Below are positions 6,301 through 34,300 of a stretch of 64,000 nt of DNA, piece by piece; position 1 is the stretch's first letter; every line of letters begins with the position of its first letter. The notes below the pieces were generated by a model. That model saw only the letters and a list, made by a program, of their open reading frames with translations, did no database searches and was not told the DNA's origin. Origin of the DNA: a virus. Both the position numbers and the translations under genes were made by a program. Location: the IMG/VR virus record IMGVR_UViG_3300005831_000023; one strand, given 5' to 3'.

Positions 6301-6514
6301 GTTTAAATTAGATTATAGAGTAATATTTAATTCCAAAAAGAATATGTATAATTATAATAAAGTGTTAATAACTAAAAATACATTTATAAAAATTATAAAA
6401 TCTGAGTGGCAAGACAAGATGATGCTAGTTGATAGTAAATGGATACCAAGCGGTGAAAAAATATTAGCAATAAAAAGGTTCGATGGGTTAAATAATAAGC
6501 TTCAAACTATGTAA
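3389..6514 (+). CDS. dnaE: DNA polymerase III alpha subunit (DnaE-type, N-terminal PHP domain)
   Basis: 1041 aa. N-terminal PHP-like YHKHTHES..VEHG. DnaE-type motifs IRPG, YQESIM and SFNASHSLSVAY (FNKSH-like). Confidence 0.85.
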   Translation: MRYNNYHKHTHESNIKTLDCVVKPIDYIKHSLNLGHTSYSSVEHGWTGKYMLNYDLCVENGLKLIYGVEAYIVLDRFQKDKSNAHIIIIALNRFGFKQLNLMLSEANKTGLYYKTRIDLELLLKLNPDDFIVTTACLGGIANAKYNLDFIDPIHNHFGNHFYLEIQNHISNEQAELNTRLHKLSIDRNIELIHANDSHYILGSDSKYRDLLLKGKGINYAVEDGFKLDYPDYDVILDRYNKQGVLASKTVIKAIQNTLIFDNCEDLKFNKEIKMPAFKCNDTTKELKKILNKKYKQSDDRDVSRNKEYIKCIKDELDIIVNTNMQDYFLYNEKIIRVSKEDYNLVLTRTGRGSCVSFYLNKLLGFTEIDRLVSPITLYPTRFMSIERILSTKSLPDIDFNCANVEPVVKASKQILGENGIYQMIAFGTMQKSEAFRNMCRALDLDIELYNEVAKDLDQYSEHPDWKDIIESSKVFIGTIDKISPAPCSYLMMDKDISEEIGLIRVNNLICCAMDGMTAEVFKYLKNDFLVVKVWDIISKTFEAINKPIPNIKQLEELLDNKVWDLYENGLTATLNQVETQLSTGLVKQYKPKSVAELSAFVASIRPGFASLVNKFISREYHTTGIKELDDLLEDSYHYMLYQESIMKFLIWCGIKESETYDIIKKIAKKKFKEHELIELKTKLINGFKAKTNEVDKFNEVWQVVEDAANYSFNASHSLSVAYDSLYQAYLKANYTIEYFTVCLNIFKEDLEKTNRIIDELDHFNIKLFSVDFEHCNDDYSFDKETQTIYRSVLSIKGFGEKTNISYIINKLNKNKFDDFIDLLNALIENGLQQSKINILIKLNFFKKFGDINYLLEVSRIYNLYNTTKILSKEKIEKANLNIEIVKKHFKKETEKSYSDIESNVNFIKDICIDIKYENSDIIDIIQYEMLYYDMITSTFKISKSVYYVQDILGKKSKTIKCYNLKTGKTIMFKLDYRVIFNSKKNMYNYNKVLITKNTFIKIIKSEWQDKMMLVDSKWIPSGEKILAIKRFDGLNNKLQTM

Positions 6515-6530
6515 ATAGGATAATTATTAC

Positions 6531-6559
6531 TTGATATGTTTTATGCAACATGTTAAAAT
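6531..6559 (+). promoter_or_regulatory. Sigma-A-type promoter candidate upstream of the acidic protein gene
   Basis: TTGATA (6531-6536), 17-nt spacer, TAAAAT (6554-6559). Located about 40 nt upstream of the SD/ATG at 6597. Confidence 0.45.
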
Positions 6560-6596
6560 ATAAATTGAATACAATATTATTATTGGAGGATTTCAT

Positions 6597-6950
6597 ATGA
6601 AAATCAAATTAAATTTCTACATAGACATTGGCAATCAATTAAAGCCAACAGAAGTGTCTAGTCTAATGAGCGACTTAAATCGTCAAGTATTAAATAATCT
6701 AGTTTTAAACTCAAAAGTATTAGGAATTGAAGTATTATCAACTAATAAGGAATTTGAAGCATATATGCCAGAACTTACTAGTTGTAATGAGTGCAAAAAT
6801 AAATGTGAAGAATGTGAAGAAGATGTTGAGGAAACTGAAACTGAGAGCGATGTTGAATATATTGATATGTCAGATATTTCAACAGATGAATTATTAGAGG
6901 AGTTGCGTTCTAGAATTGAACAAGGCAATGAAGAAGAGGACGAAGAATAA
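6597..6950 (+). CDS. Small, highly acidic hypothetical protein (Cys cluster plus Glu/Asp-rich tail)
   Basis: SD GGAGGA lies 6 nt upstream of the ATG. The C-terminal half is dominated by E/D (EECEEDVEETETESDVEY..EEEDEE). Confidence 0.65.
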   Translation: MKIKLNFYIDIGNQLKPTEVSSLMSDLNRQVLNNLVLNSKVLGIEVLSTNKEFEAYMPELTSCNECKNKCEECEEDVEETETESDVEYIDMSDISTDELLEELRSRIEQGNEEEDEE

Positions 6951-6956
6951 TTCGCC

Positions 6957-7229
6957 CTATATATAACTACCAACTATATTCTTATCATCATTATGTTGTC
7001 TAGGCATAAATACTAGACCATGTGATTCGAAATAAGATTTACAAACATTTAAATCTTCGAATTTCTTAATTGTACTAGTAGTTTTTACACTTCCTTTACT
7101 TACTTCAAATAATCTTGATACTATGCTTTCTGGATAGTCTAAAGGTTGCTTATATATAGCATATATGTATATAGTATTATTTGTATTATTACATATTATT
7201 ATATCTTGTTTTTCAATGTCACCTTGCAA
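6957..7229 (-). CDS. Hypothetical protein (90 aa), convergent with the early operon
   Basis: Protein-like composition (..IYAIYKQPLDYPESIVSRLFEV..HGLVFMPRQHNDDKNIVGSYI). SD AGGAAGGTG lies upstream on the minus strand. Confidence 0.55.
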   Translation of the reverse strand: MQGDIEKQDIIICNNTNNTIYIYAIYKQPLDYPESIVSRLFEVSKGSVKTTSTIKKFEDLNVCKSYFESHGLVFMPRQHNDDKNIVGSYI

Positions 7230-7485: not shown

Positions 7486-7983
7486 ATGAATGTTGGTAAA
7501 AACTTTGAGAATCAGTTTAGGAAATCAGTTCCAAAAGATGTACTATATTACAGAAATAAAGATACCGACCTATCTTGGTGTGGTGGTAATAGTAAGTTTA
7601 CTCCAAAAAGTGAATTTGATTGTTTATTATTTGATGGATATAATTTATTTATATTAGAACTTAAGTCTACTAAAGAATCAAGGATAAGTTTTGGAGATAA
7701 CGGAATGATTAAGACCCACCAGATCAGATCATTAAATTCTTATTCGCACTATAAAAATTGTATTTCTGGATTTATATTTAATTTCAGAGATAATTCAAAC
7801 TTTACTTGTTTTTTGAGCGTTCGAGATTTTGATATGATAACAACAGATACCGAGAAGAAATCAGTTAATATTAAAGAGATCGCCAAATATTGTATTCCAA
7901 TAGATAATAAACTACTTAGAATACAGTATTCATATGACATAGCAGGATTTTGTTTGAAATTTGCTGAAAATATTAATGTTTAA
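7486..7983 (+). CDS. recU: RecU-like Holliday junction resolvase (PD-(D/E)xK nuclease)
   Basis: N-terminal GKNFENQF. Catalytic-type segment FDCLLFDGYNLFILELKSTKE (D..D..ExK), then SF..HQI as in RecU. Confidence 0.65.
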   Translation: MNVGKNFENQFRKSVPKDVLYYRNKDTDLSWCGGNSKFTPKSEFDCLLFDGYNLFILELKSTKESRISFGDNGMIKTHQIRSLNSYSHYKNCISGFIFNFRDNSNFTCFLSVRDFDMITTDTEKKSVNIKEIAKYCIPIDNKLLRIQYSYDIAGFCLKFAENINV

Positions 7984-8122
7984 TAGGTTAGAATCTTTAA
8001 ATTGTCCAGAGAATTTTACATTTTTGTAGTATTTTTACAGATATGTACATAAAAAAAGCAATATCAAATATATATTACTTTTTTCAACTATGTACAAACT
8101 AATATGTTTACATTAGTTATCT

Positions 8123-8380
8123 GCTTTCAATATAGCAATTATTAGCTTCAATTCTAACAAATTAGTAAAGCTTAGTATCGTTTCAATGTACAATTGTTTA
8201 ATATTTTCAACTGTTTCAATAATAGCAATTGTTGTCAACTAACCGTCAAGTAACCGTCAAGTAACCGCATGTTTTCAGCTTTCAATATACAATTGTCGTT
8301 TATGTCTGCTTGCAACATAGCAATTATTAAATCTAAATTAATATCAGTTTCAATATACAATTGTTTAAATATTTTCAACT
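8123..8380. repeat. Decayed CRISPR-repeat-like units plus an 11-nt tandem repeat flanking the array
   Basis: Six units resemble the CRISPR repeat around a CAATTG core: 8123-8152, 8180-8212, 8213-8240, 8278-8307, 8308-8335 and 8347-8380. Units 8180-8212 and 8347-8380 are nearly identical to each other, and each abuts a repeat-like unit with no spacer. AACCGTCAAGT occurs as 2 full tandem copies plus a degenerate partial third copy (AACCGCATGT) at 8241-8273. Confidence 0.55.
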
Positions 8381-8671
8381 GTTTCAACATAACAATTGTT
8401 GTTTGCAAACTAATTAAGTTGAATTCAATTTAAATTAATGGTTTGCAGTTTCAACATAACAATTGTTGTTTGCAAACCACATACTAACAAAACAAAAGTT
8501 AAAACTCGAACGTTTCAACATAACAATTGTTGTTTGCAAACGCAGAAATAGTTGGTAATGGTAGTAAAAAAACAAGGTTTCAACATAACAATTGTTGTTT
8601 GCAAACACTGCATTTTTCGATTATTAACCATCCACCATAATGTTTCAACATAACAATTGTTGTTTGCAAAC
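8381..8671 (-). CRISPR. CRISPR array: 5 identical 30-nt repeats and 4 unique spacers
   Basis: Repeat GTTTCAACATAACAATTGTTGTTTGCAAAC at 8381-8410, 8448-8477, 8512-8541, 8577-8606 and 8642-8671. Spacers at 8411-8447 (37 nt), 8478-8511 (34), 8542-8576 (35) and 8607-8641 (35). The strand call is tentative. The minus strand matches the adjacent nuclease gene, places the decayed repeats at the distal end, and gives a repeat ending in GTTGAAAC. Confidence 0.9.
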
Positions 8672-8897
8672 GCTTTTCGAAACTAGCTTTCAAAAATTAC
8701 AAAACCTCTAACTAATCATTACAACTAGCTTTTAAGATTTTGTTCCAAGTACAATTGCATTTTGCTATCCAAGTGGATAGGGTGTCTATATAGTTCTTGG
8801 AAACTCAATAGACTTAACGAGCGGAAGCCAACTACCAAGTAGAATTACGACGAATACTCGCTTTTAGCCGCCAAATCGGCTTAAGTACTATTATATA
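8672..8897 (-). ncRNA. Candidate tracrRNA / omega-RNA-like scaffold (or array leader) between the nuclease stop codon and the array
   Basis: Non-coding and visibly richer in G/C than its surroundings. Hairpins CTATCC-AAGT-GGATAG (8765-8780) and GCCG-CCAAAT-CGGC (8867-8880). ACTTAA/TTAAGT long-range pairing (8812-8817 with 8880-8885). A repeat-like segment GTTCCAAGTACAATTGCATTTTGC at 8742-8765. No T-run terminator after the nuclease gene. Confidence 0.4.
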
Positions 8898-10169
8898 TTA
8901 CTTTTTATTTTTTTTCAACTTCTTTTTTATTATTTCTTGATTATCTGGGTTGGAAATATTTTTAGCAGCATTATAATCTGCATCAAGTTTTACTCCACAA
9001 TTAACACAAACAAATTCATCTCTTTTTACTCTATTGTCTTTATCTGTATGCCCACACCCACTACACTTTTGACTAGTGTATCTTGGGTTTATAAGTTTAA
9101 CTTCAATTCCAACTTCATCAGCTTTGTATTTAATCTTTTCTTGTAAATCGAAATAGCTCCAATCTTTAAGAAATAACTTATCTTTTTTAATATTTGATAA
9201 GTCTTCCATCTGTATTATTTTACAGTTATTCTTAACTGCTAATCCTACAATATATTTAGAATATTTATGGTTAATCAAATCTTTAAAATTAGCTATTTTC
9301 TTTCTCACAACTCTTACATATTTAGACCTATGTTTATATCCTCGACCTTTTATAGCATCGCTTTTTATGCTAGATTGCAAAGACTTTAATAAAGATTCTT
9401 GTTTCTTTCTAAAGCTGTCTATTTCGCCTCCTCTTATGTGATATCTTTTTAAATTATTATTAAATGCCATATAAGCAGCATTTACTATTCCCATGTCTAT
9501 ACCCATTATATTTTTATCACTTAAAAGTAACTCTTTCTTTTCCATACAATATGTTAAATTAATGAACCATTTATTCTTACTAAAAATTATCATTGAAGCT
9601 CCGATTTTATACTCTCCAGATAGCACGCTTTCAATTATTTTCTTTTGGTAATTACCATCAACTTTAATTTCTACGCAAACATGGCAACTACCTTCGTTTC
9701 TTGCAAATAACCTTAAGTCTACATAATACTTATTTTCATTTTCAATAACTTCTATGCTCTTAGAATGTAAATCTATAATACTATTTTTATAAGATGGAAT
9801 AGACATCTCACCTTTTAAAAACTTCTTCTTACTATCATTCCATTTCTTGCAACCTCTTTGAATAGAAGTTGAAATATTAGCTTTCGATAGCATTGGGTAT
9901 TCGGTTCTGATTACTTTATCACAATACCCACTAAAAGATTTGTATCCTAATATACTTAATATATCTGGTTTACACTCATGTTTGATATAATAATCCGAAC
10001 AATAATTATTCCATTCCCAATTTAATCTAATTGTTTTGTTCAATACTTTTTGTGTTTGGTCTTGAAACTCCACAAGTTGTTTCTTAAAATCTTTGAAATC
10101 TATACCCTCAGAATCGATTATCTGAAAGCGCATCACTTTATTTATTGTATCAATTTTTATTTCGTCCAT
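8898..10169 (-). CDS. cas12f: Miniature type V effector, Cas12f/TnpB-like RuvC nuclease (423 aa)
   Basis: Split RuvC motifs appear intact: GIDMG (D225, codon 9495-9497), IQMEDL (E322, codon 9204-9206) and DADYNAAKNI (D398, codon 8976-8978). Also RYTSQ plus a CxxC..CxxC zinc ribbon (C369/C372/C388/C391). Strong SD GGAGGA lies 6 nt upstream of the ATG. The gene sits directly next to the array. Confidence 0.85.
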   Translation of the reverse strand: MDEIKIDTINKVMRFQIIDSEGIDFKDFKKQLVEFQDQTQKVLNKTIRLNWEWNNYCSDYYIKHECKPDILSILGYKSFSGYCDKVIRTEYPMLSKANISTSIQRGCKKWNDSKKKFLKGEMSIPSYKNSIIDLHSKSIEVIENENKYYVDLRLFARNEGSCHVCVEIKVDGNYQKKIIESVLSGEYKIGASMIIFSKNKWFINLTYCMEKKELLLSDKNIMGIDMGIVNAAYMAFNNNLKRYHIRGGEIDSFRKKQESLLKSLQSSIKSDAIKGRGYKHRSKYVRVVRKKIANFKDLINHKYSKYIVGLAVKNNCKIIQMEDLSNIKKDKLFLKDWSYFDLQEKIKYKADEVGIEVKLINPRYTSQKCSGCGHTDKDNRVKRDEFVCVNCGVKLDADYNAAKNISNPDNQEIIKKKLKKNKK

Positions 10170-10170
10170 C

Positions 10171-10599
10171 TCATTCCTCCAGCATATTGTATATACAAAG
10201 TATGGACATATTAGCTACTTGACTTTTATTTACACCCCATTTTTTAGCAAGGTGTATTGTCAAATCATTAACGGAATTGAGCATATTGAATGATACATGT
10301 GTTGTATCTTTATTCTTCTTTATTCTATTATATGCAGTTCTAACATCATCAATATCTTTTATTTTAAATTTCAAATCTTCAAAACTTGTTTTTTTATCAA
10401 TTAATTTATTAATTTTCAATAAATCTTCTTGACTCAAGTTTTGTAAGTTTTCTATAATATTATCTATAGAAGTTTTAATTATAATCTTCTCTTTAATATT
10501 TTCTTGAGTTTTATTTTTTTTTGGATAATTAGCAGCTTGTTCTATATCTATATCTACGCCTTCATTTTTATTCTTCTTATTCATTTTCATACCTCTCAT
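10171..10599 (-). CDS. Putative centromere-binding partition protein (ParG-like, C-terminal ribbon-helix-helix)
   Basis: Follows parA with a 23-nt overlap. The C terminus THVSFNMLNSVNDLTIHLAKKWGVNKSQVANMSILCIYNML has a strand-helix-helix pattern. Alternative starts exist at M4 and M6. Confidence 0.5.
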   Translation of the reverse strand: MRGMKMNKKNKNEGVDIDIEQAANYPKKNKTQENIKEKIIIKTSIDNIIENLQNLSQEDLLKINKLIDKKTSFEDLKFKIKDIDDVRTAYNRIKKNKDTTHVSFNMLNSVNDLTIHLAKKWGVNKSQVANMSILCIYNMLEE

Positions 10600-11356
10600 T
10601 AATTTTTTTTATAACTTCATTTGTCAATTTTGCATATTGTCTGGATATTTCTAATTTATTATCAAATAATTCTATAGGAATACTTAGTTCTTGAGATCGT
10701 ATAATATTAACAGATTCAGATAATATTGTATTAAATATTTGGTTACTATCAAAATATTCGCTCATCTTTTCAAAACATTTTTTTGTTAAAGTTGTCCTTT
10801 TATTTGCTCTAGTTAATACAGTTCCCAATATTTCCAAATCGCTATTAGTATTATTTCTAATATCGTTAACTAAATTTATAATCCTGTTAATACCTTCAAA
10901 TGAAAATATTCCCACATCTATTGGTATTATTAAGTAATCGCATGCTGATAGAACATTTAAAGTTGCTATTCCCATTGTTGGTGAACAATCAAATAAAATA
11001 AATTTATAATCATCTTCTACCTCAGATATTCTTTTTTTGATTATCAATTCTCTAGCTAAATAATTTGAAAAGTCTAGATCGATGGAAGTAAGTTCCAAAT
11101 GACTTGGTATCAAATCCAGATTATCAAACTTAGTTTTTAGTATTGCATCTTTAATTCCTATTTCATTTTTAAGAACACTGTAAATATTTCTATCTTTGTG
11201 AGATTCTTTTTTAGTATAAATTCCTTGACTTAAATTTGCTTGGCTATCCATATCTACTAATAATGTTTTATACTTTTTAGATAAATTATATCCAATATTA
11301 ATAGTACTGGTAGTTTTAGCAGTGCCTCCCTTTTGGTTAAACATAGCTATTTTCAT
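10577..11356 (-). CDS. parA: ParA-family partition ATPase (deviant Walker A)
   Basis: MKIAMFNQKGGTAKTTST (KGGxxKT), DMDSQANLS and IIPIDVG. 259 aa with no N-terminal HTH, so it is type Ib-like. Confidence 0.9.
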   Translation of the reverse strand: MKIAMFNQKGGTAKTTSTINIGYNLSKKYKTLLVDMDSQANLSQGIYTKKESHKDRNIYSVLKNEIGIKDAILKTKFDNLDLIPSHLELTSIDLDFSNYLARELIIKKRISEVEDDYKFILFDCSPTMGIATLNVLSACDYLIIPIDVGIFSFEGINRIINLVNDIRNNTNSDLEILGTVLTRANKRTTLTKKCFEKMSEYFDSNQIFNTILSESVNIIRSQELSIPIELFDNKLEISRQYAKLTNEVIKKINERYENE

Positions 11357-11373
11357 ACTTCATCTCCCTTTTT

Positions 11374-11402
11374 TTAATATGTTTATAACTATAACATATC
11401 AA
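11374..11402 (-). promoter_or_regulatory. Candidate par operon promoter overlapping an inverted repeat (operator / parC-like)
   Basis: On the minus strand: TTGATA (11397-11402), 17 nt, TATTAA (11374-11379). Overlaps the inverted repeat ATATGTT..AACATAT (11376-11398). TAATATGT motifs recur at about 11420 and 11430. Confidence 0.3.
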
Positions 11403-11800
11403 AAATAAAAATACAATCATAATATGTTAATAATATGTATTTGTTATGTTTATTATAAAAATATATTAATAATAACTATATTTCGACAAAAAAAATAAGA
11501 CCGACCGAAGCCAATCTTATTCATCTTTAAGCTATCTGAAATAGCATCTTTTTTGAAAGTTATAGAATATTCGACAAAATAATTTAAATTAATCAAATAT
11601 TCCTCTTTTCTTTTGAAATAAAACCTGTTATTATTTTAGTTGTAAGTGACACCCTTATCAAAAAAACTTACATTCACATCAACCGAACTACCAATTCTGT
11701 TGATGTATATACAACTAAAAAATTCCAATTACGCCAATTTAATACAGCCATTGAAAAACAACCCGAAATTAAATATTGGTTATGTAATTGTAATACAAGA

Positions 11801-11847
11801 CCCACTAAGACCCACTAAGATACCACTAAGATACCACTAAGATACCC
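11801..11847. repeat. Iteron-like tandem repeats upstream of rep
   Basis: CCCACTAAGA x2 (11801-11820), then TACCACTAAGA x2 (11821-11842), then a partial TACCC. Confidence 0.7.
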
Positions 11848-12077
11848 TTATTAGGTGTTAAGCAAGTAATTAATTTGTTAGGACTATAGCGAACGAACCC
11901 CATAAGGAACGCCCCATGGATAAATTATAAAATAAAACCTACAATAAAGCAATACTTTTTTATACTTTTTTACATTAACAAAACTTATTAAAAAGTATTG
12001 GTAAAACAAAGTGTTTTTCGACAAATAATCACATGCTATTTATTGACGTTTTAAAGCATGTTTAAGACACTTAATTT

Positions 12078-12112
12078 TTAAAATGTATAAATAATCGTCT
12101 TATACATTTTAA
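12078..12112. promoter_or_regulatory. 13-bp perfect inverted repeat upstream of rep (operator or structural element)
   Basis: TTAAAATGTATAA (12078-12090) and TTATACATTTTAA (12100-12112) with a 9-nt loop. Confidence 0.35.
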
Positions 12113-12166
12113 ATCGTTCAGTATGCTTTTATTTGATAAACAAGATTATATTATAGATATGATGCT

Positions 12167-12304
12167 ATGAATTTTTTGTCTATAGGTTCTAAAAGTACTA
12201 TATCCAAAATATTTAAAAATTTACGAGATGTGGAATTAATTAATGAAATAAAAGTTGGATTTCAAAATACTAATAAAATTTATGTAAAAAATATAAATAT
12301 ATAA
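12167..12304 (+). pseudogene. 45-codon ORF resembling an isolated winged-helix segment of the downstream Rep (remnant or mini-gene)
   Basis: MNFLSIGSKSTISKIFKNLRDVELINEIKVGFQNTNKIYVKNINI parallels Rep residues ..MLNCSEHSSIKYAKELIKYKLIEEDRIGYNQSNRIYL. No clear SD. Confidence 0.25.
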
Positions 12305-12318
12305 AGGAGTTACCAAAA

Positions 12319-13491
12319 ATGATAAAAATTAAAAGATACAAAGCAGAAGATTTAATTAAAAATAAATTTTATGAAATGCCTAAATTTTTACTATATAATG
12401 AGTTTAAAGGTTTATCTTATGGTGCTAAGATATTATATGTGTTACTTAAGGATAGACATAAATTGAGTATGAAAAACAATTGGGTGGATAAATATGGATA
12501 TATATATCTAATTTATACACGAAAAGATATGGCTAAAATGTTAAATTGTTCCGAACATAGTTCTATAAAATATGCTAAAGAATTAATAAAATATAAACTT
12601 ATTGAAGAAGATAGAATTGGTTATAATCAATCAAATAGAATATATTTAACAGAAATTACCATAGATATATACTCCAAACACACTGATATCAAGGACATGA
12701 ACAAATTGCAGTATGGACATGAAGAAAGTTCATGTCCGGACATGAAGAAAGTTCAACCTAATAAGAATAACTTTAATAATAATAATTCTACTAAGAATAA
12801 ATCTGTCTGTTCTGAATCAAAAGATGAACAATCGTTCGAACAAAAAACAGAAACAGACAGACAGACAGATATTGACATAAAAAATGATTTATTGGAAAAG
12901 GTTAACATCAACCTAAAAAATGACAAAAAAAAGGATTCATCAGCAAATACTAATGAAAACCTAAAAAATGACAATAAAAATTGTTTGGGTAAAGATCTTA
13001 AAATCAACACATTAAGCTATCCAATCAATTTTATTAAACAACATTTTAAGTTTAATGAGCTGATAAGTCAACCACCAATACAAGATGAGATTTTTGCAGA
13101 GTTGCATAAAATATTAAATTATAAGTCTCAAACCATTAAGATTGGCGCCAAGATACAAGATGAAGACATTGAGATATTTAAACAAAAGCTTATGAAACTT
13201 ACACCAGAAGACATACAAAATGTGGTAAATAAGGTCTTAGAAGTTGCAAATAAAGAATATGTTCAACATCCAGACTTGCTAATAAGGACTAAGATATACT
13301 ACCAGTTTAAATCTAGCATTAAGGCACTATCTAAAAACAATGCAAAAAGGAAACCAAAAGAACCTATACCAACAGTCAATAACATACCACAAGTACCACA
13401 GGAACGTAATTATGAGCAAAGAGAATACACAAGTGAGTACCTTGAAAGCTTTTATGAAAATTATTGGGATAAACATACTAAACCAGAATAA
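12319..13491 (+). CDS. repA: Plasmid replication initiator, RepA_N family
   Basis: The N-terminus FYEMPKFLLYNEFKGLSYGAKILYVLLKDRHKLSMKNNWVDKYGYIYLIYTRKDMAKMLNCSEHSSIKYAKELIKYKLIEE..NRIYL matches the RepA_N pattern. SD AAAGGAG upstream. Low-complexity central region with DNA-level repeats. Confidence 0.85.
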   Translation: MIKIKRYKAEDLIKNKFYEMPKFLLYNEFKGLSYGAKILYVLLKDRHKLSMKNNWVDKYGYIYLIYTRKDMAKMLNCSEHSSIKYAKELIKYKLIEEDRIGYNQSNRIYLTEITIDIYSKHTDIKDMNKLQYGHEESSCPDMKKVQPNKNNFNNNNSTKNKSVCSESKDEQSFEQKTETDRQTDIDIKNDLLEKVNINLKNDKKKDSSANTNENLKNDNKNCLGKDLKINTLSYPINFIKQHFKFNELISQPPIQDEIFAELHKILNYKSQTIKIGAKIQDEDIEIFKQKLMKLTPEDIQNVVNKVLEVANKEYVQHPDLLIRTKIYYQFKSSIKALSKNNAKRKPKEPIPTVNNIPQVPQERNYEQREYTSEYLESFYENYWDKHTKPE

Positions 13492-14498: not shown

Positions 14499-14837
14499 CT
14501 ACTTAGTTTTTGGTAATTTAAATACATTACTTTCGATTAAAGTTTTAATCAACTTATCAAATCCGTTTTTCTTACTTAAACCAAGTCTACTTGTCATTTC
14601 AAGAACTATATCAAATGCATTCTTGAATCTATCAATATTTTTATCATTCTTGTATAATTGTTCTGATAGGTTTACAGCATGTCCTACGATCGATTCTAGA
14701 GCCTTAATCTTATCCAAGGTCAAATTATACCTTGATTTATATAAGTCTTTTAAATACAAGAATAACGTGTATAGAACACATACTAACAAAACAAAAGTTA
14801 AAACTCGAACGGAATTATTCATTATTAACGCATACAT
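14499..14837 (-). CDS. Membrane-anchored hypothetical protein (single N-terminal TM), last gene of the lysis cluster
   Basis: 112 aa. N-terminal hydrophobic helix VLTFVLLVCVLYTLFLYL. Lies directly downstream of the endolysin gene. Contains the spacer 2 match. Confidence 0.7.
   Translation of the reverse strand: MYALIMNNSVRVLTFVLLVCVLYTLFLYLKDLYKSRYNLTLDKIKALESIVGHAVNLSEQLYKNDKNIDRFKNAFDIVLEMTSRLGLSKKNGFDKLIKTLIESNVFKLPKTK
14777..14810. other. Protospacer: perfect 34/34 match to CRISPR spacer 2 (8478-8511)
   Basis: CACATACTAACAAAACAAAAGTTAAAACTCGAAC is identical on the plus strand at both sites. The next base (G) also matches the first base of the following repeat. The match covers codons ~10-20 of the 112-aa gene. 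Confidence 0.95.
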
Positions 14838-28297: not shown

Positions 28298-30340
28298 TCA
28301 TAATCTATATGCATGATAGTCATATCTTGCATAAGTTATACCATTGACAGAAAATATTTCATATGATGGATAAGAACTCGTTAGTTTACCATAATATATA
28401 TTGTCTGCAACATAAGTATATACTTTATCAGCAGGAGTATCTTGGCAGAAATATCTTTTACCCATCATTACAGCATTATAACCCATATAATAATACCCAT
28501 TTCCATATACGTCACTAACTAAACTTTGCTCAGTACTAGCTATTTTAGTAGCATCATTTATACATCCCTTAACAACAAAAACTTCTTGACCATCGTGAAT
28601 TCTAGTAGCACTAAAATCTCTATATAGCGGATAAGCACTATTAATATCTGAAAATGGTAACATATACTGACCATTTAATCCATCGATAACTTTAAACTTT
28701 ACAGTATAGTTACTATTGTCAATATAGAAGAATAATTCACCCATGTAAAAAGCTTGGATTGATTCATTACTTGGAAGTCTAACAGATACATCTATGATCT
28801 TTTGTACAGCAATAGAACGTGCCATTCGAATACTAATACCATTCTTAGTTAGACTAGCGTAGTTAGTTGTTAAATTACTTGCAAGTGCATCATCGCAATA
28901 AAAATTAATTGTCCAACCTAGCAAGTCTTGAAACATTGTAGCACAAGTATTTACAACTCTAGAATTAATACTTTTTCCTGCTTCGGATGTAGTAATTCTA
29001 GCTGTTGTAATGCCATAAGAATCTGTTCCTGCACTAGTACTTAAAACAGTTTTAACACCATAAACATAATCATCATTTTTCATGCTAGAAACTACATTGA
29101 AATTATATCTATTTGAACCAGTGCCAGTAAATACTTTAATGCTTCTAGCACGTTTGAAAGATGAATCATAGTAATATAATTTAGATTTTTCACCAAGACT
29201 TATAACAGGAGGAGTAAAATTAGGATATCCGTCATTATAAGCGTTAAGATACCAACACGTTGTAAAATCCCATCCAACAAATGTTGATTGAGTTTTCATT
29301 TCAGAAGTTGTTTTAGGAGTTGCATAAAGTTCTGGAAATATACAAGTATCTGAGTTATAATAACAAGATGTCATAACAATTGGTGGATCGCTTATAGCAC
29401 CAAGAAAAGCTCCAGGCTCTTCTTCCGTTAATTCGGTTTGATTTGTATAATTAAGTACACAATAGCTATTAATATAAGTGTTATCATAATAGGTAAATGG
29501 TACAAATCCTGCTACAAAGCGAGGATTGATTGTAACTATTAGATTACAAATAGAAAAACAGTTTATAACATAAATAGCATCAAGTTCAGAAGCAAAACCG
29601 CCAGTATATCCATATTGACAAGTAATTGTTGAAACAGAACTACATTTTTCGATTCTTAACCATCCACCATAATTTACAAATCCACCAAAAGAATCTATAC
29701 CACCAAAAGTTGCTGTTGAATGACAATTTTCTATATAGTTATATTCTTCAAAATTAGCACTCCATCCTTCGCAACCTCCAATAAATCCTCCGACATTATA
29801 AGGTAATTTTGAACCAGTATTGTTAATTATAAGACTTGTAGTACAATCTTTTATATAACTAAATGTATTACTTGGATAAAACTCACCAGACAAACCTCCA
29901 ATTGTACTAGGGAAATAAACATTACAATTTGAGTTTATAGTTAAACTTGTAGTTATGTTTTCAATTTTACCAGAATAAATACCACCCGCTAATGCACCTA
30001 ATTTCAAAACTGAATCAGTCCAAGTTGCATCATTTAAATTTATTATAGCATTTTCTATATTAATATTCTTTATAGTATAAGCTGTTGTAATATCACTAAA
30101 TAGCCCCCAATACCAAGTATCAAATGGATTCATAACTAGATTAGTGATTTTAAATCCACCGCCATCATATCCTCCTGTAAATTCTCCACCAATTGGCGAC
30201 CAACTTGGGTAATCACTTAAGTCAATATCAGCTGTCTGTAAGAAAAATGATGATAAATAATTTCTAACATAGTTTAATTGTATTGAATTGCTTACAAGGT
30301 ATGGATCAAACTCCGTACCAGTACCGCCATCAAAAGACAT
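28298..30340 (-). CDS. Tail-associated protein with a GLUG-motif beta-helix-like N-terminal half
   Basis: The N terminus GTGTEFDPYLVSNSIQLNYVRNYL..ADIDLS..WSPIG..FTGGYDGGGFKITNL is typical of GLUG-motif proteins. Repeated GG(L/F)xG motifs. Confidence 0.75.
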   Translation of the reverse strand: MSFDGGTGTEFDPYLVSNSIQLNYVRNYLSSFFLQTADIDLSDYPSWSPIGGEFTGGYDGGGFKITNLVMNPFDTWYWGLFSDITTAYTIKNINIENAIINLNDATWTDSVLKLGALAGGIYSGKIENITTSLTINSNCNVYFPSTIGGLSGEFYPSNTFSYIKDCTTSLIINNTGSKLPYNVGGFIGGCEGWSANFEEYNYIENCHSTATFGGIDSFGGFVNYGGWLRIEKCSSVSTITCQYGYTGGFASELDAIYVINCFSICNLIVTINPRFVAGFVPFTYYDNTYINSYCVLNYTNQTELTEEEPGAFLGAISDPPIVMTSCYYNSDTCIFPELYATPKTTSEMKTQSTFVGWDFTTCWYLNAYNDGYPNFTPPVISLGEKSKLYYYDSSFKRARSIKVFTGTGSNRYNFNVVSSMKNDDYVYGVKTVLSTSAGTDSYGITTARITTSEAGKSINSRVVNTCATMFQDLLGWTINFYCDDALASNLTTNYASLTKNGISIRMARSIAVQKIIDVSVRLPSNESIQAFYMGELFFYIDNSNYTVKFKVIDGLNGQYMLPFSDINSAYPLYRDFSATRIHDGQEVFVVKGCINDATKIASTEQSLVSDVYGNGYYYMGYNAVMMGKRYFCQDTPADKVYTYVADNIYYGKLTSSYPSYEIFSVNGITYARYDYHAYRL
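29639..29673. other. Near-protospacer: 33/35 match to CRISPR spacer 4 (8607-8641)
   Basis: Genome ACTACATTTTTCGATTCTTAACCATCCACCATAAT versus spacer ACTGCATTTTTCGATTATTAACCATCCACCATAAT. Same orientation as the spacer 2 match. Confidence 0.9.
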
Positions 30341-30354
30341 TCATATCACCTACT

Positions 30355-31317
30355 TTAATTTAATTCATATATTATTTGACCTTGTCTAACAAATTTTTGA
30401 GAATTAATTGTAAACAACTCGTATTGAGATGTGCTAACATACGCACCAGAATATACATCATTAATATAATATCTGTAATAGTCCCTATGTGCATCTAAAT
30501 AACTTTGCGTAACAAGATAAGAGTCCTCGCTCTTAAGAATAAGTTTTGACATAAAATAACCAGTTTGACTACTTGCAAAACAAGTATATTTAGTTAGAGG
30601 ATGTATCATTCCATGCAATTCTTCTGCTCTTTGTAAATAAGTCCAGATTTCCATATCATCTATTAAATAATATGAATAATATCTAATTCCATATTGAAGC
30701 GTTAGAGTTGGATTAATCATATTATAACAATTAAAATCGCAAAATATAAATAATCCTTGATTAGCAGTAAACATACTAATTACATAATTACCACCATTTT
30801 TAGTTGAAAAAAATTTAATATGAACTCTTGTATAATCTCCAACTAAATAGAACGCAAACTTATTACCTAAATATCCCATGCTAATAATTGGTAAAGTACT
30901 ACCAACATTTGAAATAGCTGTTCTGCACTCACTGGAAGAATAATAAATTGTAATCCATATGTTTCCTTTAGTAATTCTAGCATAATTTGTATCACTACAA
31001 GTATAATATATATTTGCATAGGAAACTAGTGTAAATCCACAATTATTACAGAGTAAATCAGCGATTGCATTGGCACAAAGAGAATTAAGATATTCGTATT
31101 GCTGAGCAAAACAATCTATATATGCAAATGAATAATAGCTTGTATTAGCAGTTTCACCAAGATTTGTTTCTATGACATTTTTAGTTCCATAAATATATTC
31201 ATCGCTCTTAAATATATCTACTTCATACGTATTCATGTCTTGAGCCTCATTCTCGATCATTCTAGCTTTGCATGCTCTTACCCAATCAGTACCATTATAA
31301 TAACTCATTCTAGGCAT
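30355..31317 (-). CDS. Hypothetical tail-region protein (320 aa), paralogue of the C-terminal half of the GLUG protein
   Basis: Collinear similarity by eye: SYYNGTDWVRACKARMI / YYYDSSFKRARSIKVF; DEYIYGTKNVI / DDYVYGVKTVL; NYARITKGNIWITIY / NYASLTKNGISIRMA. Confidence 0.7.
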   Translation of the reverse strand: MPRMSYYNGTDWVRACKARMIENEAQDMNTYEVDIFKSDEYIYGTKNVIETNLGETANTSYYSFAYIDCFAQQYEYLNSLCANAIADLLCNNCGFTLVSYANIYYTCSDTNYARITKGNIWITIYYSSSECRTAISNVGSTLPIISMGYLGNKFAFYLVGDYTRVHIKFFSTKNGGNYVISMFTANQGLFIFCDFNCYNMINPTLTLQYGIRYYSYYLIDDMEIWTYLQRAEELHGMIHPLTKYTCFASSQTGYFMSKLILKSEDSYLVTQSYLDAHRDYYRYYINDVYSGAYVSTSQYELFTINSQKFVRQGQIIYELN

Positions 31318-31326
31318 TTAACCACC

Positions 31327-34300
31327 TCAATTCAAAGACCATAAATTATTTACAGCAACTAGATTAATAGACTCTTTTGGATAGACTACCATATTTCCAT
31401 TTGCTAAATTAGTGCTTAGAAATACTAAATAATTACTAGCATTTACTATCTTTCTAATTGCACCATTTGAACCTGTACAGGATGGCATTGTGAGGGTAAT
31501 GTTGCCTGTATTTCCATAAACATTTATAATATCATATCCACTTATTAAAAGCGTCGTATTGGCTGTTACAGTCTGTATATCATACATTGTATAGTCGTTA
31601 GTATCAATCCAGCAATCTTTTGCAGTTGGAGCAGTAGGTGGATCATCTTGAACCGCTATGATCTGCATGGTTTCCACAACTTCTTCAACTTTTGTAACGA
31701 AATCTGGTAATCCATCAGCACTAATCGAATATTGACCATCTTTATATAATTGACTCCACTTGCCTGTAAAGTCTGGTGACATCTGTACGCCATCAACATA
31801 AGCTGTTTGAGTTGCATGAATATTTGTAATTACTAATATCATTCCAGTACATCCACTATGCCCTGCTTCGGAAGGATTAAAAGATGCTGAGCATCTAGAA
31901 TCTTGCCAACTAGTTGTGACAGGAAAATCAATAGCAGTACCAGTTAAGTCGTTCTCGCTATCAGTTAGGGTAAAGTAATTTGTATTAGTTACATCATAGA
32001 CTTGCAATCTGATCTGACCTTGGTTTCTAAATAAGCTTATTCTAGATGGTAGACTATTAAACCAGTTAGGATTAACTTTAGCGGTTTCGGATTGTGAAGT
32101 TGATATTCCTGCAAGTAACTTTAATGAATATGAACCATAGTAACTTGAGTTATTATCTGACGTACCATTCGACCAATAAAGTGGTATAAGCGTATCTGGA
32201 TCAAATACCTCAAAACTACTATTCCAAATCATATTTTTAAAGTAGTCTAAGAACCTCGGATCAATACCATATTGATCTATCATAGTAGTAGTATTTTCAC
32301 CTTTAATTGTAATTCCTTCTGGTGTAATAGTCACAATACCATTATCGTCCCCAATGTATGCATTTTTAATATATAAACTGCCACTTGTGTCTGCATAAAA
32401 CACAGGAGTAGTGCCTTTCTCGATTACAATTCCATCAGTTGTATTCAATTTAATAGTGCTATCTTTAGTATCTGAATTAATTATAAAGTCAACATTAGTT
32501 GCTATCAACTCATTATCATTAATTGTAACTGATCCATCTTTGTTAGTAAGTACCCATAAAGCATTGCAATATATACCATGACTTGTTATAGCAGTAGTAT
32601 AAGTTGCCCAGTTATCATCTGACATTACAATCTTATCTTCTAAAATACGCATAGAACCAGTTATTTCAGAATCCTCAATTGCTTGCATAAACATACCACG
32701 TCTATTTAGTACTATATCGCTTGTAACGGCTATTGGATTACTATCGGTTGTTATAACGCTATCTGTCGTTAGAATAGTATCTTTATCATCTGAATACTCT
32801 TCGTAAGTAGATTTATTCTTTTCAAGAACTACACTAGATTTCTTACTATTAGCGATGATAGCTGTAATATAGTCTACATCATCGTTGTAGTAAGGCTTCG
32901 TACTTACAGTTACAGATAAGCTATTACCACTAGGATTATGTTTGATCTCAGTTATTCTTGGCGTATAAGCTATTTCTAATGGACTATATTCAACATCAAT
33001 TTCAGCACCTAAAATAAGTTTATTCCATGTAAAATTCTCACTAGCATAGTTATACACATTTACCATATCAATTGAAAATTCTATTGGTGGACTAGCTTTA
33101 AGTGCAAGTACTTGAATACCAAATTGTAATAATTCTGTTTTATCAGAAGTATCACATTTTACAGTGTCTTCATTAATAAATTGAAGCAATTCTTGTAGCT
33201 GTATAGTTGTTAAGTTATTTTCGTAAGCTAATAGATCTGTAATATCGTCCATGTCTGCATTAATGTATTGAATATCTAGAACTTTACCATTAATAGCACC
33301 ATTATTACTTGCAATTTCAATACCTTTAAGATAAGATTCATTATGCCAATAAGTATAATCGTGTCCATCTATAAGGGTATCTCTCTTAATACAGCTATCT
33401 TCATTCTCTTGCAAATTCTCAAGCTCAGTATTTAAACCTTCATCTATAACATATAATGCATCTAACTCAGATTGAGCAGTAGACAAGTTCGATTGCAATG
33501 TTGCGTACTCTGTACCTTTAGAATCTTTTAATGCATCATGAGCCTCTAATGCATCAATTAGGCTTTGTGACATATAATCAGTAGTCATAAAATAAGTAAA
33601 ATCATCAATGTATGATTGACCAGTTATATTAACAGAGCTTATTGTAATTAAGTCTTTGCCCTCAACATAAAGCCTTGTTATTATCTCATCAACTTTAATA
33701 TCTTGGTTAAAAGACTTCATATAATTCTCAGCGCTAATTATCAATCCTGTGTTAGCTGGAAGTTCATCATAAGTCTTTACTTGAATAGTATAATTATAAT
33801 TATCAAAAAATACGATACAGTTATATAAATTTTCTATAGTTCGAATGACTTCTAAAACACTAGCTTCGGTTATCTCAAATACTCTATAAGAATTTTCAAT
33901 ACTAGCGCTAACATAAGACACCGTCCAAGTATTAATTAATAAGTTTTGAATAATATAATCTAGTATTCCACCTTGTGTTCCATCTGTTGGTACAAACGTT
34001 GTTCCAGTGTATATTCTTCTAGTATTAACAAGTCCAGTAGAGTTCTTGAATTCTTTGAGTTTAATTTTATTTAATGCATAATGTTTAGAATAACAACTTA
34101 TATTTTTTACATCTCTATCAACACCTTGTGTCTGTATCTTATAGATATACATATACTCTCGTCTTAAAAATGTATCATCCATATATACTTCTACCAATAA
34201 TATTTGACCAGTTTGAATATTATCAAAATGAGGATTATCTGTATTATCTATATCATTCCAACTCTTATATATTGTAAAGTCAAATTCATTCACAGTTTTA

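Follow-up and report, generated by a model that had tools for sequence, protein, structure and literature searches.

In the 64,000-nucleotide (nt) stretch IMGVR_UViG_3300005831_000023 (the window), which belongs to an AT-rich phage-plasmid, the gene for a miniature RNA-guided nuclease, Cas12f, forms an unbroken minus-strand series with the partition gene parA and a small open reading frame (ORF), and is followed by a scaffold-like region and a CRISPR array (short palindromic repeats, clustered and regularly interspaced). On balance, the account that we find most probable is that this is a minimal type V-F1 cassette which the partition (par) operon bears at its 3′ end as accessory cargo, that Cas12f expression is driven from par, and that the targets of the nuclease are sibling phage-plasmids. 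The genes and the junction on which this account depends are the following:

10577–11356, minus strand: parA, 259 amino acids (aa), matching Pfam AAA_31 (expectation value, E, 2e-50) and CbiA as well as PHROG 164, ParA-like partition protein (E 4e-57).
10171–10599, minus strand: small orphan protein gene (longest ORF, 142 aa; likely start at 10584, 137 aa), in the position of a centromere-binding partner.
8898–10169, minus strand: cas12f, 423 aa, AsCas12f1-type (V-F1/V-U3).
10167–10180, minus strand: coupling junction, with the Shine-Dalgarno (SD) sequence GGAGGA at 10180–10175, an A, the small-gene stop TGA at 10173–10171, G at 10170 and the cas12f ATG at 10169–10167.

The initial annotation had described the third gene as Cas12f-like, and it proved to be an intact gene for a full-length AsCas12f1-type homolog. 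Residues 7–419 matched the AsCas12f1 entries 8j1j, 8j12, 8j3r, 7wju and 8dzj of the PDB with E from 1e-95 to 8e-94, and the Pfam model Cas12f1-like_TNB was recognized with E 4e-23 (81.8 bits against a cutoff of 26.3). The RuvC residues D225, E322 and D398, as well as the zinc-ribbon cysteines C369, C372, C388 and C391 (two CxxC pairs), were invariant in an alignment of 13 sequences; with its catalytic motifs intact, the protein is predicted to be cleavage-competent. At about 42–45% identity, this effector is a new, divergent relative of AsCas12f1 from an AT-rich host, and an exact look-up of the Cas12f and the holin of the window returned no record. Reading the gene instead as the TnpB of an IS200/IS605 insertion sequence (IS) next to par would be in line with the NCBIfam guided_TnpB score of 187 bits and with PHROG annotations as 'transposase'. 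We regard this as scarcely credible, for five identical repeats with unique spacers lie directly downstream of cas12f, the homology to the structurally characterized AsCas12f1 covers the full length, and relatives on phage contigs and plasmids keep the layout of cas12f, scaffold and short array. An IS-type TnpB was rejected because the CRISPR array is present and no TnpA ORF was found in the flanks.

As had been claimed, a single nucleotide separates the stop of the small gene from the ATG of the nuclease gene, and the SD sequence lies within the end of the upstream gene, 5 nt before that ATG. The 23-nt overlap reported between parA and the small ORF holds only for the longest ORF; the third ATG (10584–10582) is the likely start, being preceded 7 nt upstream by GAGAGG, agreeing with the public 137-aa gene call (P0150) and standing near the point where alignments with homologs begin, and it reduces the overlap to 8 nt (ATGAATAA). 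No significant RNA structure was predicted across the junction between the small gene and cas12f (z score −1.2). The claim that no terminator is visible among the three genes, or from the nuclease stop to the scaffold and array, was borne out by two scans: a minus-strand terminator scan of 11490–7900 gave no terminator-like site, and neither did a second, more lenient search for a hairpin plus T-run in the DNA that extends from the par promoter region through the array. Two hairpins lie outside these genes:

11493–11522, minus strand: terminator-like hairpin with a T-run, the sole intrinsic-terminator-like site on the minus strand within 11560–7990, closing the unit upstream and bounding the par unit on its 5′ side.
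8044–8096, between the array and the convergent resolvase gene: bidirectional terminator-like AT-rich hairpin (−17 kcal/mol, z −4.6).

The second of these is likely the 3′ end of the unit, and the standard terminator scan misses it because it contains no G-C pairs; a hairpin equivalent to the first lies upstream of parA (284–316) in the related contig L002, described below. Since the same-strand junctions are tight, no terminator occurs from par to the end of the array and a hairpin follows the array, parA, the small gene and cas12f have the anatomy of one transcription unit. Their cotranscription is likely, and a single transcript might run on through the array.

A possible alternative, to which we give clearly less weight, is that the adjacency has no regulatory meaning: the cassette would have landed in a permissive gap between par and the resolvase gene and been compacted there, with cas12f expressed mainly, and independently of par regulation, from a promoter of its own in the 3′ part of the small gene. 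Weak promoter-like matches are indeed present in the small gene (for example 10374–10345, 9/12), the cassette is dispensable as a unit, being wholly missing from the related contig L103, another gene can intervene between par and cas12f (as in L002), and distant homologs occupy many different positions. On the other side, the 1-nt gap, the SD sequence in the upstream ORF and the lack of a terminator are the standard signature of cotranscription and translational coupling, the junction is kept in L103, and the promoter-like matches within the small gene do not exceed what chance would give, 39 such matches having been found in this AT-rich DNA against 33.8 ± 6.6 expected.

Downstream of the nuclease gene, the minus strand carries the remaining parts of the cassette:

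8890–8918, minus strand: promoter-like site TTGAAA-17-TATAAT (11/12 matches), overlapping the cas12f stop.
8672–8897, minus strand: non-coding region resembling a trans-activating CRISPR RNA (tracrRNA) or scaffold, 226 nt between cas12f and the array.
8381–8671, minus strand: CRISPR array in which five invariant 30-nt repeats (GTTTGCAAACAACAATTGTTATGTTGAAAC) enclose four unique spacers of 34–37 nt.
8124–8380, minus strand: decayed array trailer with degenerate repeats, irregular 'spacers' of 42–65 nt and a 167-nt internal duplication.

The promoter-like site has a counterpart at the equivalent position of L002 (3904–3932, TTGAAA-17-TATATT), in DNA that is only about 66% identical. It probably drives the tracrRNA and the array separately from par; as such a site is conserved at the 3′ end of cas12f, scaffold and array need not rely on the par promoter. 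The scaffold region is homologous to non-coding DNA of L002 (about 66–69% identity), contains a candidate anti-repeat at 8768–8741 that would form a weak duplex (−12.5 kcal/mol), and had no match in Rfam. Five exact copies of the repeat compare with 0 expected by chance, and the trailer looks like an old, eroding part of the array. The 23-nt core of the repeat was not found in the Joint Genome Institute (JGI) metagenome contigs, and a degenerate repeat pattern gave only single chance matches in IMG/VR. The adaptation genes cas1, cas2 and cas4 are absent from the locus, whose flanks consist of the par genes and the Holliday-junction resolvase gene.

The ParA lineage is tiny, with only three ParA proteins of at least 69% identity among 5.8 billion clusters and a next best match of 37%. 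The small protein was found in two further contigs, L103 and L002 (P0152), and the lineage amounts to four contigs in total. L002 (4.2 kb) carries, in this order, ParA (71% identity), the small protein (36%), a 94-nt spacer, an AcrVA2-like gene, 3 nt, Cas12f (52%), the scaffold and the first repeat, and its Cas12f is the closest relative known. L103 (1.2 kb) has about 89.5% nucleotide identity to the window on either side of a 2.0-kb gap, its positions 1–711 corresponding to 10815–10084 and 768–1176 to 8082–7672. It lacks the part of cas12f that begins near codon 29, together with the scaffold and the complete array, and the gap ends at 8083, within the terminator-like hairpin; retained are the 3′ end of parA, the small protein (86% identical), the resolvase side, and the identical junction (GGAGGAATGAGATG; GGAGGAATGAGATGG) with about 24 cas12f codons. 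The retained junction and codons mark L103 as a deletion derivative. The fourth contig, L104, ends inside the small gene and is uninformative on linkage. Hence the adjacency of par and cas12f extends beyond one genome, the closest Cas12f relative standing behind orthologous ParA and small-protein genes and L103 preserving a remnant of the junction: all three informative members of the lineage (the window, L002 and the L103 remnant) have or had cas12f behind the small gene, two of them with the 1-nt junction.

Two features of these contigs deserve separate description. In L103, window positions 10083–8083 are replaced by a more GC-rich filler of 56 nt (712–767) that contains a small hairpin, CCACTT-CTT-AAGTGG, and does not occur in the window. 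In L002, the AcrVA2-like gene (1774–2664, 296 aa) lies 3 nt upstream of the cas12f start; it was assigned through a precomputed PF26125 match and a weak match to PDB 7ci1 (E 1e-3). It is odd that translation of a Cas12f gene should be coupled to that of an anti-CRISPR-like gene, and the window has no AcrVA2-like homolog. The preceding 94-nt spacer (1680–1773) is predicted to form a long hairpin with no U-tract (−21.3 kcal/mol, z −2.9), which may serve for attenuation or processing or as an operator.

Outside this lineage the linkage was not seen. Cas12f homologs of 44–47% identity stand in phage or integrative contexts without ParA; no ParA was found within 6 kb of Cas12f or TnpB at any of 80 IMG/VR loci, or within 6–8 kb in the set of these viral loci plus three others (L003–L005), none of 17 IMG/VR ParA loci had a Cas12f nearby, and par linkage was likewise absent from the V-U3 prototype plasmid locus of B. 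thuringiensis HD-771 and from Clostridium plasmid loci. The initial annotation had named the presence of the nuclease at unrelated positions in relatives as evidence that would contradict a tie to par; such positions were found for all examined homologs of at most 49% identity, and not inside the par lineage. Because distant Cas12f homologs on phages and plasmids are not linked to par, and the cassette has been lost in L103, we take the cassette to be lineage-specific, dispensable cargo docked on the par operon and not a segregation component.

It had also been speculated that RNA-guided DNA binding might be linked to segregation, in which case Cas12f would take part in the process by binding DNA under RNA guidance as an adaptor of the ParA system. 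Operon position is the only observation that speaks for such a role. L103 has the 3′ end of parA and the small protein without Cas12f, no spacer matches repeats near par or rep, the RuvC triad and the other nuclease motifs are intact, and the position of the centromere-binding protein is already filled by the small protein. The adaptor role was rejected on the L103, spacer and nuclease-motif evidence, and the idea retains next to no probability in our view.

In a comparison with the window, which is about half of the 118-kb source contig, two of the four spacers match the element itself:

14777–14810, minus strand: protospacer of spacer 3 (8478–8511), 34/34 identical, within the holin gene 14499–14837; flank on the side of the protospacer-adjacent motif (PAM) ...AATTCC.
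29639–29673, minus strand: near-self protospacer of spacer 1 (8607–8641), 33/35 identical with mismatches at 19 and 32, within the 680-aa tail-module gene 28298–30340; flank ...TTTGTAA.

The holin gene was recognized by Pfam Phage_holin_6_1 (31 bits, above cutoff) and PHROG 608. One of the two differences between spacer 1 and the resident copy is coding, with Ile in the spacer version and Arg in the window, and the other is synonymous; the coding difference suggests that spacer 1 came from the allele of a relative. Neither self protospacer is flanked by repeat-like sequence, and in both target genes it is the template strand with which the CRISPR RNAs (crRNAs) of the spacers would pair. The 5′ PAMs of V-U3 effectors are T- or C-rich (PMC7229846). 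By comparison of their flanks, a defined PAM may be present at one self site at most, possibly at neither. The four spacers had no match among reference phages and plasmids, spacers 1–3 had none in IMG/VR, and a 24-nt spacer-1 pattern with one degenerate position, which covers both the spacer and the resident protospacer, had none in the JGI metagenome contigs; relatives of the two target genes were not found in IMG/VR either. Self-matching as a general feature of related systems was considered and rejected as unsupported, because the two spacers of pCF007-C, a complete plasmid with a related system, have no self-match.

Four explanations of the self-matches were ranked. We prefer that the spacers are aimed at sibling phage-plasmids, the resident copies lacking a PAM; in second place, the metagenome contig may merge two co-occurring strains, with the same biology; in third, the spacers could be harmless self-derived survivors of adaptation in trans (cf. 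10.1101/2023.06.23.546257); and last comes regulation of the element's own genes.

Extended to the whole locus, the third of these explanations would make the spacers inert by-products: adaptation machinery of the host, acting in trans, would have sampled the abundant resident replicon, only non-functional self spacers without a PAM would have survived, and the array would be left without real targets in a decaying cassette. The locus has no adaptation genes, which is a property of V-U3 systems (PMC7229846); acquisition in trans is documented for plasmid-borne type IV-A3, with a preference of adaptation for mobile elements (bioRxiv 10.1101/2023.06.23.546257). The self-matches of two out of four spacers with dissimilar flanks, the long decayed trailer of the array and the loss of the cassette in the sister contig L103 would all be in keeping with it. 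Decay fits poorly with a Cas12f that has kept all catalytic and zinc-binding residues and with five identical repeats, the coding difference in spacer 1 points to a relative, and the complete plasmid with a related system has no self-matches; we therefore regard this explanation as rather doubtful, a little more so than an adjacency without regulatory meaning.

Self-regulation fares worse. Here Cas12f made from the par operon in the plasmid-prophage state would be guided to the element's own holin and tail genes, and would control lytic genes or, under defined conditions, trigger self-destruction. Of the two matches, the perfect one falls in a lysis gene and the near-perfect one in a tail gene, the predicted pairing of both crRNAs is with the template strand, and expression would be tied to a maintenance operon. 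With an intact RuvC site, on the contrary, stable binding would normally lead to cleavage; the PAM-side flanks differ between the sites, the cassette is gone from L103 although the par and resolvase genes on its two sides persist there, and the AsCas12f1-type clade offers no precedent. We consider it improbable. A broader conjecture, unlikely in our judgment if not quite to that degree, is that Cas12f is made only during plasmid-prophage life, the self-matching crRNAs serving for lytic control or as a guided self-destruct or curing switch; or, more modestly, that the cassette is a heritable, RNA-programmed incompatibility determinant that spares residents lacking a PAM.

In the account that we favour, cargo driven from par and directed at siblings, transcription from the par promoter would read through parA and the small gene into cas12f, and ribosomes ending at the TGA would re-initiate at the ATG one nucleotide on, helped by GGAGGA. 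Cas12f would thus be present at a low, copy-number-buffered level, of the kind usual for partition operons, as long as the element persists as a plasmid prophage, and its level would be autoregulated if the small protein is a ParG- or omega-like repressor. The tracrRNA and the crRNA precursor (pre-crRNA) would be made from the promoter at 8918–8890, and the ribonucleoprotein would cut incoming DNA with PAM-flanked protospacers. Sibling phage-plasmids would be the likeliest targets because two spacers derive from the holin and tail genes of the lineage, which would amount to RNA-guided superinfection exclusion or incompatibility; the resident protospacers would be spared for want of a functional PAM, or belong to a co-assembled sister strain. 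The suggestion made at the outset that the nuclease is a competitor-exclusion weapon is compatible with spacers that match phage genes of the lineage, and fits the enrichment of V-F systems on plasmids (PMC9071438).

Several observations weigh against this account. In the sets searched the spacers had no external target, their only matches being to the element itself, and the perfect self-match of spacer 3 is hard to square with an active nuclease unless a PAM is absent. The PAM-side flanks of the two self sites differ and share no common motif (TTCC versus GTAA). In L002, cas12f is coupled to the AcrVA2-like gene and not to par, and the structured 94-nt spacer precedes the AcrVA2-like gene. 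An internal cas12f promoter may lie inside the small gene, promoter-like matches being as frequent in this AT-rich DNA as chance would give. Finally, the lineage consists of four metagenomic contigs, three of them of 1.2–4.2 kb, and the window is itself a stretch of a metagenome contig that could be a chimera of strains.

Miniature V-F systems are enriched on plasmids, and the account bears on the expression and use of such systems by their carriers. If it holds, cas12f as the last par cistron would tie an RNA-guided nuclease to a copy-number-sensing maintenance circuit, par wiring would be a simple way to keep the amount of a dangerous nuclease low and steady in lysogens, and the nuclease would join the incompatibility or superinfection-exclusion repertoire of the element. 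The holin and tail self-matches provide a concrete case of either sibling-directed phage-plasmid warfare or tolerated self-targeting, and the L103 deletion and the AcrVA2-like variant of L002 are ready-made points of comparison.

The cassette resembles AsCas12f1-type V-F1 systems of Bacilli and Clostridia, with an effector of about 420–430 aa, a conserved RuvC triad and zinc ribbon, the order cas12f, tracr-like region and short array, and no cas1, cas2 or cas4 (PMC7229846); its repeat resembles that of the prototype from B. thuringiensis HD-771 (GTTTAAACCAAACAATAGATGTATTGAAAT). V-U3 systems, which lack adaptation genes, are known from Clostridia and Bacilli; transformation by plasmids is blocked by AsCas12f1 (PMC7229846). 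Unlike other V-F1 loci, cas12f of the window has no upstream region of its own, since a single nucleotide parts its ATG from the stop codon of a gene of the partition operon, its carrier is a phage-plasmid, and two of its spacers match that carrier. V-F systems are enriched on plasmids, plasmid-borne CRISPR systems target other mobile elements (PMC9071438, PMC11656645), and type V systems borne by phages engage in mobile-element conflicts (bioRxiv 10.64898/2026.04.20.719267). Like type IV-A3, the V-M effector Cas12m, phage Cas12r and viral mini-arrays, the cassette is carried by a mobile element without adaptation genes; in that group spacers are directed against other mobile elements, often relatives, and may be acquired in trans (PMC9071438, PMC11656645, 10.1101/2023.06.23.546257, 10.64898/2026.04.20.719267). 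Those systems have operons of their own, whereas cas12f of the window follows par genes, and IV-A3 and V-M bind or repress, whereas the effector described here looks cleavage-competent. In the literature, of which coverage was incomplete, we found neither a description of Cas12f or another cas gene as a partition-operon cistron nor a paper joining Cas12f with phage-plasmids. The occurrence of V-F on plasmids and of type V on phages, the effector type and the absence of adaptation genes are already known; of moderate interest here are the conserved coupling to par, the two natural variants (one with a deletion, one with an AcrVA2-like gene) and the spacers that match their own carrier.

ParA of the window has a deviant Walker A motif (KGGTAKT) and no N-terminal helix-turn-helix (HTH), and its scores with the NCBIfam PrgP/ParA models were below their cutoffs. 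As a 259-aa ATPase with these properties, it classifies as a small Walker-type partition ATPase, type Ib-like. The small protein had been annotated as a ribbon-helix-helix (RHH), ParG-like second cistron. Its position and overlap do fit a partner gene, and the RHH fold found no family or structural counterpart: profiles of Pfam, NCBIfam, PHROG and the PDB gave no match, and homologs were confined to sibling contigs, both when phmmer was run exhaustively on 1.84 billion representatives and when 5.8 billion clusters were searched through a word index. Two AlphaFold runs gave unusable models, with a predicted local distance difference test (pLDDT) score of about 41–43. Its last ~45 residues are compatible with a strand-helix-turn(G-x-N/S-K-S)-helix pattern, and hhalign of the C-terminus against CopG, with a CopG sequence entered by hand, gave a weak match (probability 54%, E 1e-4) that is a lead. 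An RHH, ParG-like protein is plausible on these grounds. Candidate sites for it lie upstream of parA:

11357–11492, minus strand: par promoter/operator region with three direct copies of ACATATTA and an inverted AACATAT; the motifs are short and the DNA is AT-rich.

These repeats are candidate binding sites of the small protein or a candidate centromere. L002 and L104 have other short repeats at the same site, together with a clear TTGACA-17-TAGTAT/TATAAT promoter, and differing repeats among relatives would be as expected for co-evolving operator or centromere sites.

In plasmid pSM19035, the small ParA delta works with the RHH centromere-binding repressor omega, and omega is cotranscribed with the downstream toxin-antitoxin genes epsilon-zeta, that is, with a 'weapon' under the control of a partition regulator. 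The omega-epsilon-zeta operon is a parallel for the combination of a maintenance regulator and a downstream weapon, with the differences that in the window an RNA-guided nuclease and its CRISPR array take the place of the toxin-antitoxin cargo, and that homology of the small protein to omega or ParG was not demonstrable in profile searches. The operon is also like ParF/ParG of TP228 in its small Walker ParA without HTH, the overlapping small gene that comes next and the short repeats upstream of parA. Unlike in TP228, the partner comes from an orphan family and has roughly double the length of ParG, and a third cistron is present.

The window is AT-rich (25–36% GC) and has the gene content of a large tailed phage, encoding terminase, a 2441-aa tape measure protein, tail proteins, DNA polymerase III alpha, ribonucleotide reductase, holin and an amidase endolysin. 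Further features near the cassette are:

12319–13491, plus strand: RepA_N replication initiator gene (Pfam RepA_N E 3e-23), divergent from par.
11797–11846, between parA and the RepA_N gene: iteron-like direct repeats, CTTAGTGGTAT three times followed by CTTAGTGGGT twice in minus-strand reading.
7486–7983, convergent to the array: Holliday-junction resolvase gene, flanking the cassette.

The iteron-like repeats are probably a replication origin or a centromere; short repeats at the 5′ end of L002 are unlike them, being TTAATGGTTAA-like. Among the reference phages, Clostridium phage c-st has the closest terminase (34%), and the N-terminus of RepA has its nearest match in a C. botulinum plasmid. 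Since structural and packaging genes of a tailed phage share one replicon with RepA_N, iteron-like repeats and ParA, and in view of these nearest matches, the reading of the element as an AT-rich, Clostridium-type phage-plasmid, which would be maintained outside the chromosome, is well supported. Megablast of 7900–12300 against PLSDB and INPHARED found no close DNA relative, and a query of genome contigs with one protein gave no more than an irrelevant match at 24%.

Some more distant Cas12f loci showed features of their own. Plasmids of the pXO1 type (B. anthracis and B. cereus biovar anthracis; PLSDB) carry a mostly unannotated Cas12f homolog (~42% identity); its alignment falls into two pieces, and a frameshift has probably made it a pseudogene. 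The C. estertheticum plasmid pCF007-C (49.5 kb; L111/L113) encodes a Cas12f homolog of 34% identity (31173–32504) with a 3-repeat array, about 1.1 kb from a divergent replication initiator gene and near an AcrIIA9-family gene. In plasmid p02 of HD-771 (L105), a scaffold-like segment of ~190 nt is duplicated (6378–6560 and 6852–7040), and the two copies flank a 3-repeat array.

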